In this document: positions 27,001 to 33,000 of the stretch, in pieces
How positions within the stretch are numbered: position 1 is the first letter of the stretch
Layout of the letters: every line of letters starts with the position of its first letter
Origin: Candidatus Obscuribacterales bacterium
GTDB taxonomy: Bacteria > Cyanobacteriota > Vampirovibrionia > Obscuribacterales > Obscuribacteraceae
Length of the DNA stretch: 64,000 nucleotides
Assembly (NCBI GenBank): GCA_965228855.1
Contig: CBDDIJ010000003.1
Coordinates: 384,001 to 448,000, forward strand
Reading direction: 5' to 3'
Position numbers: made by a program

Positions 27001-30000
27001 CTTGGCGACTATCTGAAGATCGACACTACCGTTCCACCTGGCAACGAGAAAAAGGGCGCCGAGTTTCTCGCTGAGATTTTGAAGAAAAGCGGCATCGAGG
27101 CACAAATTTTCGATACCGCACCGGGGCGGGCATGTGTTTATGCTCGGTTGAAGGGCAATGGCAAAAAACGTGGCGTGGTTCTTTTGAACCACATCGATGT
27201 CGTGCCGGCAAATCCTGCCGATTGGAAACACCCGCCGTTTTGCGGTGAAATTTTTGACGGAGAGTTGTGGGGGCGTGGTGCGCTCGACATGAAGGGCATG
27301 GGCATCATCGAACTGGAAGCCATGTTGATGATTAAGAAGAGTGGTATCACTCTTGATCGCGACATTGTTTTCCTCGGAACTCCCGATGAAGAAGTTGGTG
27401 GCGAATTTGGTGCCGGTTGGATTAAGAAGAATAAGCCGGAGCTTGTTAAGGACTGCGAGTTTCTTATCAACGAGGGCTTCATGATCGAGGCTGATAAGAA
27501 CGGTAAGGCGAAGTACTGGGGAGTGAATTTTGCAGAGAAGAGCCCTCTCTGGTTGGAACTGACGGCAAAGGGTCAAGCTGGTCATGCGTCAATGCCACTG
27601 CCCGGTTCCGCGACAAATAAACTCGTGAAAGCGCTCCAGAAGTTGAACGACGCCGGTCCGAATTTCAAAGTTCTTCCGCCGGTCGAGGAGTACTTCAAGA
27701 ATGTCAGCACTCTTGAGGGCGGAGAGCTTAAGGACATCTACGCGACCGTGGCTGATTCTGTCAAAGACCCGGCAAAAGTGAAATTGATCATGGGCGATGT
27801 TTTGAAATCGTCGATGTTATACAACACGGTTTCACTCACGGTTTTGAAGGCTGGTTATAAAACGAATGTGATCCCCGGTGAGGCGACCGCTCAGCTTGAT
27901 TGCCGAATACTTCCCGGCGTGACCAAAGACGAAGTGGTGTCCTATGTGAAGAAAACCATTGACGATCCCACAATTGAAATCGGCGTTATCGAGTGGGATC
28001 AAGCCGAGCCCTCTAAACTCGATACCGACCTGTTTAACTCCATCAAGAAGGTTGCCGCCGACGAGTTTCCGGGCATGCCTGTGGTACCGGTCTTGGTGCC
28101 GTGGTTTACGGACTCACACTGGTTCCGTGAACTTGGACTCACCGCATATGGTTTCGAACCTGTCGAGGTGGGACCGCAACACATGGCTACGATGCATGGC
28201 GTGGACGAGCGCATTCCTGTTAAGGGAATAGAAGATGGCGTTCGCCGTATGTACAAAATCCTGATGGATGTGGGCGGCGCAAAGTAGCACGATTTAAAGT
28301 TGAATTTTCTCGATTCGACTCTTTCGTCTTGGCGATCTCTTTCTCGGTTTCTCGGCTTGTAATGCCCGACTCTGATTAAAGATTTCGCTGTAAATCGCGG
28401 CGATTGAGGCGCTGATTTTGGGATCGAGGTTCTGGTTTTCGATTCGCGCGAGAATTTGTTGTTCGCGCGAATTGTCTTGAACAGCGATTCCTCTTAGTTG
28501 TTTGACCTTACCAATGCGTCCGGCAAGGCGCATGCGTTTTTCCAGCAGCGCAATGATGGTCTCATCGATGCCGTCGATTTCGTTTCGCAGTAGATTCAGC
28601 GGGTCCGTATTATTTACTCGTGCTTCTTGTGTCATTAATCTGGTCCTTAAACGTATTATGCCCTTGAGTTCCTCAAATGAGTCGGAGCGTTCTTATGCCG
28701 CTGTCGTTGCCTTTTGCCCGACGTTGCGTGCCGAGGATTGCAATGTTTGCGAAACGACAAGCTCTTTCGCCGGTGCCGGTTTCGCAAGCGGGACCGTTCT
28801 TCCCACGGCTTGAGCGATAGGCTCGATCCGTTTCACCAGATCGCACATGTCCTGGAGCGACAGAGCTTGTCTGGCGTCTGAAACCGACTCTTCCGGACGC
28901 GGGTGGCACTCAATCATGAGACCGTCAGCTCCGCAGGCGATGGCCGCGAGGGCGAGGTCCGGAACCAATTCGCGCTTTCCGGCAGCGTGACTGGGGTCTA
29001 CCACGACCGGGAGGTGTGTTAACTGTTTCAGCGCCACGACTGCGCCGAGATCAAGGACGTTTCTCGTAAACGTATCGAAGCTCCGAATGCCGCGTTCGCA
29101 GAGAATGACGTTGTGATTTCCTTCGCTCATGATGTATTCAGCTGCCATGATAAATTCTTCAATCGTGGCGCACAGACCGCGTTTCAAAATAACCGGTTTG
29201 CTTGCCCGACCGACTGCCTTGAGCAATTCGAAGTTTTGCATGTTGCGGCTGCCAATCTGCAGCATGTCCACAATTGGATCCGCAACTTCGACATGACGTT
29301 CCGACATCACTTCGGTAACGGTTGGAAGTCCAGACGCGCGGGAGACTGCAGCCAGGATTTCCAGACCTTCTTCGCGCATTCCCTGGAATGCGTATGGCGA
29401 GGTTCTCGGTTTGAAAACACCGCCTCGGATGCAGTTGACAGAGCCTTTCAATGCTGAAGCCGATTGGGTCATCATATCCAGGTCTTCAACGGTGCAGGGA
29501 CCGCCGACGATCAATAGTTGCTTGTCTCCAACCGACACGTTCGATGTAATTTCGATTTTCGTCGTCTCGGTTCTTGTTCCTGCTAGTGCTAGTCTGGCAT
29601 CCATGATTTGTATTCTCCTTCGATTCATTTTGGGTGTGAAAAATTCTGTGTAACGAAACAGCCGGACTCCTTCTGGAAGTCCGGCTGTTAGACGCTTTTC
29701 GCGATACAACCTAGCGAGGACTTCCCCGAAGTGTCCGGCTTTGATAGTAGTAGTAAGTGCGTTGTTGAGACATTGTTGAAAACCTTCTGTACTCTGCGTT
29801 TCGGGAAATAAAAAACCGCAGTCGTTATAACTGCGGTTCACCTGTTTGTTTGCTGCGCATCACATCGCTAGCTCACATCTGGTGAACCTCATCGTTGTGA
29901 TAGTAGTAGTACTTGCGGGTCATGCTTACTCTCTCGGGCGGCGCCGTCATTTAATCTGCGGCTTCGATTAACTTTAGCCACTCTACACTCGGAAGATGTG

Positions 30001-33000
30001 CCAAGTCAAGCAAAAGTTTCCGGCGGTAACGTCATTGTTAACCAGGTCCGTTTGAGATGGTTTCGACCAATAGGAAAATAGTAATTCAATTACCTATTAT
30101 CTATAGACGCCGAGTTTTCCATTAGAGTTTGTCGGATTTTAAATGCGTCAAACTGTTGCGGATTAACTCCCGTCGCCATCTTCAGCACCGAGCTCGCCGA
30201 GGCGCTTCCGGAGCCCGTTTATGATTTCATTGCGAGCATTGAGGAGGTCCAGAAGGGCATCATATTTGGTGCCATAAGAATCAACTTCGTTCTGCAAAAT
30301 TGCATTCGTCAGAGCGTTGTTTTCGGCCTGCTCTTTGATTGCCTCGATTGCTGCGATTAGCTGACGAATCAGGTCTCGCATATCCACGGATGTGTTTTTG
30401 TGCGCGTTGCCGCTTGCGACATCATCGGCTATTCGCTGTAATCGCTTGGTTAACTTTTCGCATTTGCGAACATTGTGCTCGACCGTGTTAACGTCGGTAT
30501 CATCGAAATCTTGAATTATCGCCATCCGCCGACGCACTTCGGCCTCAACTTCTTGTGCTGTAATGTTGTTGACGTGCATCGGACCTGCACAGATTTCTCG
30601 CCAGGGCGCTCCGGCAAGAGCTTGACGCACGATCACTTCGAAAACTTGCTCTCTGACCCCGGCGCCGTATTTGCCCTGACGATTGGCGTCCTGCTGCGGC
30701 GAATCCTTTGATGGTTTAAACAGCTTACCGAGTTGCGGCAGATTGAACTTAGGTATGCCGCCTTCGCGAGGAGATTCTTTGCTGCCCGGCTCCCTCGGAG
30801 TCTCTTTCTCATCCGATGCCGTAGACCGACCGGGCGGATCGGCAAAGTCCGGTAAGACGCTGAATGGCGGCTCGATACGTGAGCCGTCAAAAGTACTTTC
30901 GAATCGGGAGTTGCAGAATCTGCAGACGGACGCCCCTGTGCGGATCATCTCGCGGCACGATGCGCAAGGAGAAAACTGTGCCGGGTCGATTCCACGTTGA
31001 CAAAAGCGGCAAAGCGCGGCGCCCTTAGCGATTGTTTCGCTGCAGTGTGGGCAAGCCGTCGATTCGCGTTCGTTCATCACAACAGCCTCAAGTCTCAGTT
31101 TCAATCTTATTCCACGCCGTGATAATTTGCTCACGCTCTGTTGCTGAGCTTAAACTGCCGGTTTGTCAGTCTGAGACGAGTTTTCAATGAGGCTATCAGT
31201 TTCCTGTTCCAGGTAGTCCCGCCGGGTCGTATAAGCCAGCTGATTGGTCAGCTGGGCAACTTCGTCCTGTCTTATCTTGTGCACCTCGTTTAAGGCGAGC
31301 GTCAGGTCCGGAGCAGCTTCATCGAGGGTCATGCTCAGTCGTTCGATGCGCTCGTTATATTTGCGAATGCGAACATTCTGAAATTGAACATTAATCCAGC
31401 GAAACGCCGGAAAGAACAAGAAGAAGCTAGCGTAAAGAGCGAGCACCAGGAAGAAATTCTCCGACGAGCTGTCACTGCTCTGGACGGCGTAGAGCATGTA
31501 CCAGAAAAACACCGTGCCGAAGAAGTTCGAACAAGCGAGCAGCAAAATCGGTTTGAGCGAATCGGTACTTATATCAGTAAACACAACAGGTTGCATCGTG
31601 ACGGCGCGAGGTGGCTGTGAATGACGCGATTCATGTGACTCTTCGTCTCTGGCGTCCGGTGCAAAATTGAGAGCGCTTTTCGAAACGGCCGCTTGCATCT
31701 CCGGAAATTTGTAAATCAAATGACCCGATGGTGTGGCGCCGGGCACGCCGTGAAATTTTGCCAGAACCGGGAATGCCGCTTCTACCTCGGTAGCAGCAGC
31801 GCCAACCAGGGGCGCGAGTTGTTCGGGCAGGATGATGCCCTGATTTGCGCGAATCAACTGCGCAACTGCTTTTGACTTCTCGTTTTCAAAATTCTGGTTC
31901 GGGTTGCCGGGACCGAATAATAATGTGTAGCAGTTTAAAAGGAAACCTTTGTCGTCCTTGACGCTCTGAACCTGCTCGGCGGAATCGTTACTCTTCGTTG
32001 AATCAAGCGGAACCGGACTGAAATCGACGGCATTTGCATCACGTTTGAACTGCATCGGATTGATACCTTGAAAAAGTTGAAGCCGTTTCAAAAGTGTGAA
32101 AAATTCTTTGATCAGTCCGATCACGTCATTCGCGTTGCCGGAGAAAACCGACATCAGCGATTGCAGCACTAGCATGACTAAAAACACCAGCGTGATTGAG
32201 AACAGCAGCATCAGGCCGAATGAGATTCGAAACAAGAACGCAAGCACGGGAGCGATTGTTTCCCAGATTTTATTCGTGAACGCAAAAAATCTGTTCGAGT
32301 AATAGCGGTATCGCAGGTTGGAGGGAAACTGGTAGTAAATTTGCCCGGATTCTGTAACATCCAGATCCGCGCCGAGTTCGTGGGCCAGGTCGTTCAGCTC
32401 GCTTGATACCACACCGAGGGGGAGTCCGGTTTGCGCCACCACATCCGGTATCGCTACGCGACGATTCATGCTGTTTATCGCAGCAAGAAGTTGTTTTCGG
32501 GTAGTCTTATTCGATGCCACTAGAATGACTTCTCCTGCTTTGCCAGTTGCCTGTCCCGTGCAGCTTTATCCATCATTCCCAGTTTCTCATACGCGATTGC
32601 GCGCTGGCTGTAAACAAAATCCGGCCCTTCCGTTCCACGCTTAAGGGCGTTACTGTAGTCCATGACTGCGCCTTTGAAATCATTCAGTTTCATGCGCGCA
32701 GACGCTCGCTTAACAAGCACATGGTCGTCATTCGGGTATTGCTTCAAAAGCGCGCTGTATGAATCGATCGCACCTTTCCAGTCTTTCATGGCTTCGTGCA
32801 CTTCAGCCTTGGTGTAGTAGATTGTTTCCTCCTGCGGATAACTCTTCAACAATCGGTCCACATCAGCCAGCGCTTCCGGATACTTTTTCATCGCCTTATA
32901 GCAAGCGGCTCGCCGTTTCAACAGGTCGACATCAGTCGGATCTATTTTTAGACCTTTGGATAGAACCGCAATCGCTTCGGTGTTTTTCATCAAAGCCGTG

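Follow-up and report, generated by a model that had tools for sequence, protein, structure and literature searches.

The question raised by this locus is why a DAHP synthase gene should be preceded by two small ORFs, each with a run of Tyr codons, and why a paralog elsewhere in the same genome should stand behind two leaders rich in Phe and Trp codons. The window analyzed here, a stretch of 64,000 nucleotides from a Candidatus Obscuribacterales bacterium (genome G000), contains on its minus strand, from 30009 to 29650, one promoter-like site followed by two leader ORFs, each of which holds four Tyr codons (Table 1). With a probability of roughly 0.85, we consider that two ribosome-dependent attenuators in series set the operon for DAHP synthase (DAHPS) and chorismate mutase (CM) by Tyr-tRNA, that a mixed pair of leaders is the common form, and that control codons tend to divide between paralogs. 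The attenuation mechanism itself is textbook; what is new is the partition of leader sensing between paralogs.

Table 1. Features of the Tyr-type DAHPS operon and its leader region (positions in the window)
Feature	Position	Strand	Details
Sigma-70-type promoter-like site	29980..30009	-	-35 at 30009-30004, -10 at 29985-29980
Leader ORF 1, 16 codons	29873..29923	-	Four consecutive Tyr codons 29911-29900; homologous leader-1 ORFs order-wide
Antiterminator 1	29835..29888	-	5' arm 29888-29881 within leader 1; 3' arm 29842-29835 overlaps terminator 1
Intrinsic terminator 1	29806..29838	-	Stem 29838-29814, U-tract to 29806; folding and consensus terminator scan
Leader ORF 2, 20 codons	29711..29773	-	Four consecutive Tyr codons 29755-29744; SD-like motif 29788-29783
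Antiterminator 2	29675..29725	-	5' arm 29725-29718 (extension 29711-29707); 3' arm 29687-29675 overlaps terminator 2; folding
Terminator 2	29650..29689	-	Strong stem 29689-29657, weak U-tract; -24.5 kcal/mol
Type I-beta DAHP synthase g02450, 303 aa	28693..29604	-	PF00793; TIGR01361 and PRK08673 above cut-off
Chorismate mutase (AroQ), 113 aa	28294..28635	-	44% identity to CM part of sister species' CM-TyrA fusion, same position

Enzymes of the operon and their paralogs

The DAHP synthase of the window consists of the catalytic barrel alone, with neither a regulatory nor a CM domain at its N-terminus: its profile match begins at residue 10, corresponding to profile position 76 of 338, and its best PDB match is 1vs1, a 276-aa chain. 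A 382-aa frame with a GTG start (28693-29841) was rejected as an extension artefact, the true start being the ATG at 29604, which has a Shine-Dalgarno motif. The N-terminal domain of type I-beta DAHP synthases is the usual carrier of allosteric control, and because the enzyme lacks this domain, expression control probably stands in for allostery. A short enzyme does not imply attenuation, since one clade of short DAHPS (11 loci) is leaderless. Downstream, the TyrA part of the CM-TyrA fusion has been lost from the G000 Tyr operon.

A second paralog on contig C5 (g05472) is a DAHPS-CM fusion behind two Phe+Trp leaders, and a third, with a long N-terminus, is leaderless, as the first-pass annotation had it; the fourth PF00793 match in the genome is a KDO8P synthase. 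The Tyr-type and Phe-type paralogs are 64% identical and belong to separate deep clades, and judging by sequence they are not a recent in-genus duplication. All leader coordinates given in that annotation translate as claimed, including the two Tyr leaders of 16 and 20 codons with four consecutive Tyr codons, the two Phe+Trp leaders before the fusion gene, a five-Trp leader before trpE and a leader with six Leu in seven codons before leuA.

Structure and covariation of the leader region

Each leader is coupled to a mutually exclusive antiterminator/terminator pair. The promoter-like element 5' of leader 1 recurs at 82 of 85 homologous loci (mean of 2 for shuffled sequences), and the leader stop lies 16 nt from the antiterminator 5' arm in 74 of 78 loci (leader start codons were picked by hand). 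For module 1, with covariation counted in 59 sequences, 97.3% of the cells of antiterminator 1 are paired, with changes on both sides in 7 of 10 pairs, a result reached by none of 500 shuffles, and terminator 1 is 97.7% paired, with both-side changes in 5 of 8 pairs. A purine shared by the two structures varies between A and G; the antiterminator takes it as a U-G wobble, and terminator 1 compensates the G by a change from U to C (27/31 G cases). Terminator 2 is 92.3% paired, with both-side changes in 5 of 6 pairs. Covariation of antiterminator 2 is modest, with 76.8% paired versus 73.0% when shuffled and at most 63.1% when slid, and its pair count was matched by 46 of 500 shuffles. No homology between the two modules in series was detected; at one locus (L065), module 1 is present twice.

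The hairpin and T-run that had been assigned to each leader are both present in module 1, and in module 2 the stem is borne out, with a U-tract so weak that the consensus terminator scan left terminator 2 of the window uncalled. This could mean that only module 1 is a transcription attenuator and that module 2 is mainly a pause, stability or translation-coupling element, a role also suggested by the weak U-tracts of 18 of 76 module-2 loci, where no more than 4 of 9 nt are T, and by the absence of module 2 altogether from 8 single-leader loci. At 5 loci no hairpin was obtained for module 2. However, the module 2 stem is strong and covarying and its in-frame control codons are kept, and the hairpin in the window cannot hide the Shine-Dalgarno motif, because ~37 nt lie between them. 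We therefore regard such a role as unlikely and prefer two attenuators in series.

Conservation is higher in the antiterminator/terminator core than in the N-terminus of the leader, which would suit an RNA switch that binds a protein or metabolite, in the manner of a T-box, TRAP or riboswitch system, with incidental small ORFs. This is highly improbable given the fixed stop spacing and the in-frame enrichment of aromatic codons, which number on average 5.8 in the best 9-codon window, compared with 2.1 in the other frames (167 leaders). In addition, both Tyr codons and both Phe codons occur in the leaders, and because of this synonymous variation it is the meaning of the leader that is kept and not its letters. 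No Rfam family matched the leaders at gathering score, in agreement with the earlier search, the best of the leader families (Phe, Trp, Thr, His, Leu) being Thr_leader with 21 bits against a cut-off of 55, and no T-box (RF00230; control matched in 5/14) was found in the genome, which is 95% complete. No Rho was found in it either. The evidence thus favors ribosome-dependent attenuators.

Modelled switching

Leader-peptide attenuation requires ribosome and polymerase to be close together. From the anatomy of the region we infer translation of the leaders and a response to the amino acid as follows. Transcription would start ~50 nt 5' of leader 1. With charged Tyr-tRNA, the ribosome would pass the four Tyr codons and cover the antiterminator 5' arm, the terminator would form and transcription would stop, and a stall on the Tyr codons would let the antiterminator form first, so that the polymerase would continue into module 2, where an unrelated sequence would follow the same logic. 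The enzyme gene would be reached only by transcripts clearing both gates, and because both gates must be passed, read-through should multiply, with a tighter off state and a steeper response.

In the folding model, which assumes a 13-nt ribosome footprint on which the switch position depends, a ribosome at any of the four Tyr codons keeps antiterminator 1, and from the next codon onward the terminator is predicted; the other three G000 modules show the same switching. Across homologs, the terminator arm is predicted to be blocked in 75 of 79 cases for module 1 and 61 of 76 for module 2 with the ribosome at the middle control codon, and in 20 and 6 of the same homologs, respectively, with the ribosome at the stop. 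When the stall is in module 2, the terminator is often the form that the full-length RNA prefers at equilibrium, and therefore the switch model needs co-transcriptional kinetics. The region has the features of a classical attenuator, namely a control-codon-rich upstream ORF, an intrinsic terminator between leader and gene (with a weak U-tract in module 2), a mutually exclusive antiterminator with its 5' arm in the ORF (strong evidence for module 1, modest for module 2) and, in the 13-nt footprint model only, release of the antiterminator by a stall on the control codons.

A 1:2 protector hairpin, which in the E. coli trp layout gives termination without translation, is not predicted in any of the four G000 modules, and therefore untranslated RNA should read through; its antiterminator is predicted at 0.75-1.0 in all four. 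This prediction is compatible with leaders that report the decoding speed of U-starting codons generally, as affected by tRNA A37 modification, tRNA level or antibiotics, and not amino-acid supply alone. The Phe, Tyr and Trp tRNAs have A37 modification in common, and the same RNA module is also found 5' of trpE, of a codon-matched tRNA array and of a Tyr-consuming tyrosine isonitrile synthase, at the last two of which induction by Tyr starvation would be odd. Nevertheless, the identity of the leader residue fits the biosynthetic content of the operon, and decoding speed would add an input to the proposed wiring and not replace it. We consequently give this explanation little weight and retain Tyr-tRNA as the proposed signal.

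Occurrence of the leaders

Of 103 short-DAHPS loci retrieved from the order, 90 have leaders of this kind, arranged in tandem at 78; the 9 long-type DAHPS loci have none. Mixed tandem leaders occur in oxygenic cyanobacteria too, including cultured ones (records L222 and L230). For the L222 homolog, leader and gene were both covered in assembled contigs (shares at most 0.35) from four runs, and the leader contigs were deeper in 3 of the 4, although contig depth is no basis for ranking segments within one gene, and a collapse of strains would look identical.

The Trp and Leu leaders reported earlier, both of the classical type, also recur in relatives: a Trp leader stands at 26 of 28 usable trpE loci (62 found, 30 fetched), and a Leu leader at 27 of 30 leuA loci (30 fetched of 48). 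Furthermore, the genome employs leader attenuation for Trp, Leu, Ile/Leu/Val, His, Met, Thr and Asn/Asp genes. A loose genome-wide scan of 32,901 small ORFs, run with no formal null, gave 81 matches, 10 of them at 9 cognate genes and the remaining 71 unannotated. No module of this type lies before the tRNA arrays of G000 itself, and the weak model matches in family f6 do not lie before DAHPS.

Proposed partition of sensing between paralogs

The covariance model of module 1 gave exactly two strong matches in the genome (E 3e-13 and 1e-11; next 0.06), so that the attenuators of the two paralogs are homologous, as had been proposed. The further proposal that one attenuator was duplicated and re-tuned to another amino acid is not supported in that form, because leaders are mixed in single-copy relatives. 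A mixed Phe/Tyr/Trp leader, formerly a lone exception, is in fact the rule: among the 56 single-copy Obscuribacterales loci, 51 have mixed Phe+Tyr leaders and 50 have all three residues. In the 17 two-copy genomes, 26 of 34 loci have pure leaders and 4 have all three residues. The pure kinds, which are Tyr, Phe(+Trp) or Trp, are found chiefly in genomes with two leader-bearing paralogs; for instance, all 8 genomes of genus g1 have a Tyr / Phe+Trp pair. In four genomes from other families of the class, one copy is Phe/Tyr and the other Trp. The closest sisters of the Phe-type fusion gene, single-copy loci in genera g9, g27 and g31, have mixed Phe/Tyr/Trp leaders. Because single-copy relatives, including these sisters, are mixed, we interpret the paralog pair as the partitioned form of a mixed sensor rather than a re-tuning between amino acids, a reading drawn from sequence comparison over about 3-4 lineages. 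Thus, from a common mixed pair, control codons would tend to divide once two leader-bearing paralogs exist, with Tyr on the CM-TyrA-linked copy and Phe(+Trp) on the other, or with Phe/Tyr on one copy and Trp on the other.

Alternatively, the attenuators may be real and the Tyr/Phe split a product of drift or complementary decay, without a selected division of labor. TAY and TTY codons are one base apart. Few lineages are independent, and an independent-pairs test of copy number against purity gave 3.3 pairs in the same direction, 0.4 in the opposite and 3.3 without difference (median p 0.25, not significant). A single clade of Phe types was rejected (AU p 0.002), but one clade of Tyr types was not (AU p 0.42), so that several origins of the latter are not supported; the locus groups were named after the first tree had been seen. 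There are also exceptions both ways, with 8 two-copy loci still mixed and 5 single-copy loci pure. Two of these 5 are in genomes that are 66-70% complete, and the other three in genomes 91-96% complete that also hold a leaderless type I-alpha DAHPS. The type I-alpha DAHPS was considered as the bearer of the missing partner leader and rejected, as 0 of 24 loci matched the model and no leader-terminator pair was present. Against drift, the two leaders of one operon, which are not homologous, shift in the same direction; CM-TyrA occurs with mixed or Tyr-type leaders and never with Phe-type ones, and thus TyrA tracks Tyr codons; and mixed leaders are retained across 26 genera and in cyanobacteria. 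Drift is therefore a doubtful explanation, and the partition may well be adaptive.

Relation to known systems

In Corynebacterium glutamicum, as described in the accessible portions of two reports (PMC11802643, PMC4046766), a single aroR leader peptide with Phe and Tyr codons (Phe-Tyr-Phe only) precedes the DAHP synthase gene aroF, and stalling raises transcription, reportedly without a response to Tyr. Compared by description, the system here differs in that two modules follow one another, control codons come in runs of 4-6, some versions are pure Tyr and paralogs divide the codons between them. E. coli trpL and pheL (Rfam Trp_leader and Phe_leader), to the extent covered by PMC11802643 and PMC3082878, likewise have a leader ORF and an antiterminator overlapping an intrinsic terminator; in contrast, the leaders here have no Rfam match and no predicted protector hairpin, are tandem and precede the first enzyme of the pathway. 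According to the available part of PMC3641672, the mgtCBR mRNA leader of Salmonella, which is contrasted there with one bearing two intrinsic terminators, also has two leader ORFs, sensing different signals (ATP and proline) additively, whereas here a single set of amino acids would be read by both modules, and neither module lacks a terminator-type hairpin of its own. The Acholeplasma uORFC-13-1 motif before aroF, a predicted uORF and terminator at a DAHP synthase gene, is single, Phe only and from another phylum in the accessible text of PMC8632094. The domain order of the Phe-type paralog, DAHPS followed by AroQ, is that of the C-terminally CM-linked DAH7PS of Prevotella nigrescens; the accessible text of PMC8408635 describes no leader control.

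The paralog partition may be viewed as an mRNA-level analogue of E. coli AroF/AroG/AroH, which, in the available portion of PMC11802643, divide the first pathway step among Tyr-, Phe- and Trp-responsive paralogs via allosteric inhibition and TyrR/TrpR. Here, leader codons would make the division, and the type I-beta enzymes behind them have no N-terminal regulatory domain; the resemblance is one of analogy and not of homology. A literature search that mostly excluded subscription papers turned up no description of leader attenuators that read one signal in tandem, none of aromatic leaders from cyanobacteria or Melainabacteria, and none of leaders partitioned between paralogs.

Significance

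These results place leader-peptide attenuation in a phylum for which a 2016 paper, in its accessible part, found "no reliable data" (PMC4833913). They also suggest a countable case of regulatory subfunctionalisation, in which single-base codon changes in two leaders would split one multivalent sensor between paralogs. Because the mixed version lies in cultured cyanobacteria, tandem gating is directly testable, and cyanobacterial engineering for aromatic production may draw on the leaders as ready-made sensors of Tyr, Phe and Trp. We see even chances for a broader proposal, namely that Cyanobacteriota hold a portable, programmable attenuator module that gates aromatic synthesis in tandem across oxygenic and non-photosynthetic lineages, with codons split into Tyr, Phe and Trp channels at every duplication (the three-isozyme logic of E. 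coli on mRNA), and that is rewritten for trpE, for a tyrosine-derived isonitrile pathway and for an accessory tRNA array with a leader whose codons match the amino acids of its tRNAs (Phe, Gln, Glu, His). If true, tRNA-array attenuators would share their descent with an amino-acid attenuator.

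The locus and its leaders

The locus lies on contig C3 of an 8.2-Mb genome (G000), and the coordinates that the first-pass annotation gave for the leaders and synthases all translate as it had claimed. The DAHP synthase (DAHPS) is of the short type, without the N-terminal part of about 75 residues present in the family profile. Its paralog on contig C5, a DAHPS-chorismate mutase (CM) fusion with 64% identity to it, is preceded by two Phe+Trp leaders, and a third paralog, with the long N-terminus, is leaderless. A fourth family match was rejected as a DAHPS, being a KDO8P synthase. 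The upstream flank is a gene for a double zinc-ribbon/coiled-coil protein (30163-31134), and 7 nt separate the CM stop from the end of a convergent M20 peptidase gene (26869-28287). At Phe-type and many mixed loci the divergent neighbour is instead a gene whose motif suggests a universal-stress-protein-like product.

Leader features and related modules (minus-strand positions without a contig name are window coordinates)
Feature	Location	Strand
Promoter-like site	30009-29980	minus
Leader 1, four Tyr codons	29923-29873	minus
Terminator 1	29838-29806	minus
Leader 2, four Tyr codons	29773-29711	minus
Hairpin 2	29689-29657	minus
Type I-beta DAHPS, 303 aa	3' of hairpin 2	minus
CM, 113 aa	3' of DAHPS	minus
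Module 1 before trpE (L122)	G040:C2:3402187-3402275	
Module 1 before PvcA-like gene (L119/L279)	G055:C20:2895-2974	minus
Module 1 before tRNA array	L121:607-1336 (G017:C4:71106)	plus
Module 1 before tRNA array (L120)	G018:C4:87545-87627	minus
Ile/Leu/Val leader before ilvD (L269)	G000 C3:3642951	
His leader before hisG (L270)	G000 C3:1552602	
Met leader before metB-type gene (L271)	G000 C2:1924127	
Thr leader before thrS (L272)	G000 C3:2639751	
Asn/Asp leader before non-discriminating aspS (L273)	G000 C2:1628375	

A conserved, probable RNA switch

Each leader ORF, with an antiterminator and an overlapping terminator, forms a module. Among 59 module-1 sequences the antiterminator was 97.3% paired, with both-side changes at 7 of 10 pairs, and the terminator 97.7% paired, with both-side changes at 5 of 8; shuffles and slid registers all fell far below these values, and because the sequences are related the shuffle results are not probabilities. 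In module 2 the terminator stem covaries and the antiterminator signal is weaker. Folding in which the ribosome was assumed to cover 13 nt retained antiterminator 1 with the ribosome at each Tyr codon and lost it one codon further, and for the other G000 modules the switch was predicted inside or soon past the control codons. In homologs, a ribosome at a middle control codon left the terminator arm blocked in 75 of 79 cases for module 1 and 61 of 76 for module 2, and one at the stop codon in only 20 and 6, respectively. The enrichment of aromatic codons is in frame only, and both synonymous codons are used.

The element belongs to no Rfam family. In structure it matches a classical attenuator apart from the protector hairpin, which E. 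coli trp has and the DAHPS modules are predicted to lack. Folding also predicts read-through of untranslated leader RNA, unlike in E. coli trp, where it is not expected. We regard the feature as real and as very probably working as two leader-peptide attenuators in series (probability about 0.85-0.9).

Occurrence in the order, class and phylum

Of the 107 genomes of the order, 102 had a DAHPS match. The listing covered 150 of the 180 matches, and all 103 short-type loci in it (both G000 copies counted) were analysed together with 9 long-type controls, leader starts being curated by hand. Leaders precede 90 of these 103 loci, in tandem at 78, and none of the 9 controls. Of the 13 short-type loci without a leader, 11 form one clade, 1 lies directly behind another gene and 1 is cut by a contig end. 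This clade is well supported (L070, L076, L087, L088, L091, L092, L094-L097, L100) and is an extra copy in genera g1, g10 and g34. At L065 (G012), module 1 occurs twice in tandem, replacing the usual module 1 plus module 2, and a type II dehydroquinase follows DAHPS.

Elsewhere in the class, 30 loci of other families comprised 23 of the short type, with a single Phe/Tyr leader at 13, a Trp leader at 4 and none recognised at 6, and 7 of the long type, where no leader-terminator pair was found; four genomes have one Phe/Tyr and one Trp copy. Outside the class, 24 of 90 genomes sampled from the phylum had a strong module-1 match, one per genome. At 22 of these matches mixed leaders stand in tandem upstream of a short DAHPS, 1 has a single leader and 1 is followed by an IS605-type element. 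At L240 (G371:C1:6186703+), an IS605-type TnpB gene occupies the usual place of leader 2 and DAHPS. Among 51 of 80 loci found, chosen by cyanobacterial-type record titles, 50 had an aromatic leader and 47 matched the module-1 model. The cyanobacterial enzymes form a clade nested in Obscuribacterales diversity in the tree, which may reflect transfer or hidden paralogy.

Reuse of module 1 and other leaders

The module-1 model had matches in 76 of the 107 genomes of the order. Besides DAHPS, module 1 stands before trpE in G040, with a Trp/Phe/Tyr leader, and in G055 before a PvcA-like tyrosine isonitrile synthase scoring below the family cut-off; there a second tandem Tyr-rich pair is followed by the genes for this synthase, an FAD protein and a dioxygenase of the TauD type. 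It is puzzling that Tyr shortage would induce a Tyr-consuming pathway. In G017 and G018, of one genus, module 1 (E about 1e-13) directly precedes an array of Phe, Gln, Gln, Glu, His and Glu tRNAs, and its leader of 13-14 codons consists largely of Phe, Gln, Glu and His, the residues of these tRNAs. The gaps that separate the tRNA genes hold further tiny ORFs, rich in Gln, Glu, Arg and His. G000 has accessory tRNA arrays at C3:724518-727973 (21 genes called) and C3:1529761-1530653 (5), the larger one preceded by a terminator-like hairpin and small ORF unrelated to module 1.

Classical-type leaders also precede trpE and leuA in G000, as first annotated, and the ilvD, hisG, metB-type, thrS and aspS genes of the table are likewise behind leaders of this type. 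Those for Trp and Leu recur at 26 of 28 trpE and 27 of 30 leuA loci. Asn/Asp-rich stretches precede aspS in G056 and G060 as well. Neither Rho nor T-boxes were found in G000. A scan match before zigA (L274, G000 C5:515358 region) is probably false; a palindrome there may resemble a zinc-regulator box, and a small ORF ribosomal protein L33.

Comparison with known attenuators

C. glutamicum aroR is reported to have a single Phe-Tyr-Phe leader responding to Phe (PMC11802643, PMC4046766), in contrast to the two leaders with four Tyr codons each in the window, and a Phe uORF was predicted upstream of Acholeplasma aroF (PMC8632094). The tandem attenuators described in PMC3641672 serve two different signals, whereas both window leaders carry the same codon run. 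Further points of comparison are the E. coli AroF/G/H isozymes (PMC11802643) and C-terminal CM fusions (PMC8408635). For cyanobacteria, a 2016 paper described reliable data on attenuation as lacking (PMC4833913), and a Synechocystis preprint suggests one possible attenuator peptide upstream of aroQ (10.64898/2025.12.20.695498). In the literature searched, with older comparative attenuation papers excepted, no case of tandem same-signal or paralog-partitioned attenuators was found.

Leader composition and paralog number

Among the matches listed, the leaders mixed Phe and Tyr in 51 of 56 genomes with one leader-bearing copy, and contained all three aromatics in 50, whereas among the 34 copies of the 17 two-copy genomes, 26 had pure leaders and 4 all three aromatics. 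The Tyr versus Phe contrast first annotated stands (a Tyr versus Phe+Trp pair in 8 of 8 g1 genomes), and what had been overlooked is that mixed leaders are the usual single-copy state. Genera g25 and g28 have a Tyr(+Trp) versus Phe pair, and g36 a Phe/Tyr versus Trp pair. Trp-type copies are L099, L101 and L102 (g36) and L098 (g18); those of g36 have lost the aromatic run of leader 1 and retained the module-1 terminator.

A CM-TyrA fusion follows most mixed and Tyr-type loci, and Phe-type loci have CM alone or fused. Only the CM part of CM-TyrA remains at the G000 Tyr locus, and prephenate dehydrogenase is encoded elsewhere in an unusual fusion with prephenate dehydratase (L277, C3:886869-888197), before which no leader was evident. 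A fusion of this kind also lies behind a type I-alpha DAHPS in L354 and L360.

Phe types as a single clade were rejected (p 0.002), and Tyr types as a single clade were not (p 0.42). Where the g1 Phe-type fusion has sisters in single-copy genera, these carry Tyr codons at the equivalent positions; the tree does not settle which way the codons changed. An independent-pairs test of leader composition against copy number was not significant. It is likely, though few lineages stand behind it, that the sensing of aromatic amino acids has been adaptively partitioned between the DAHPS paralogs.
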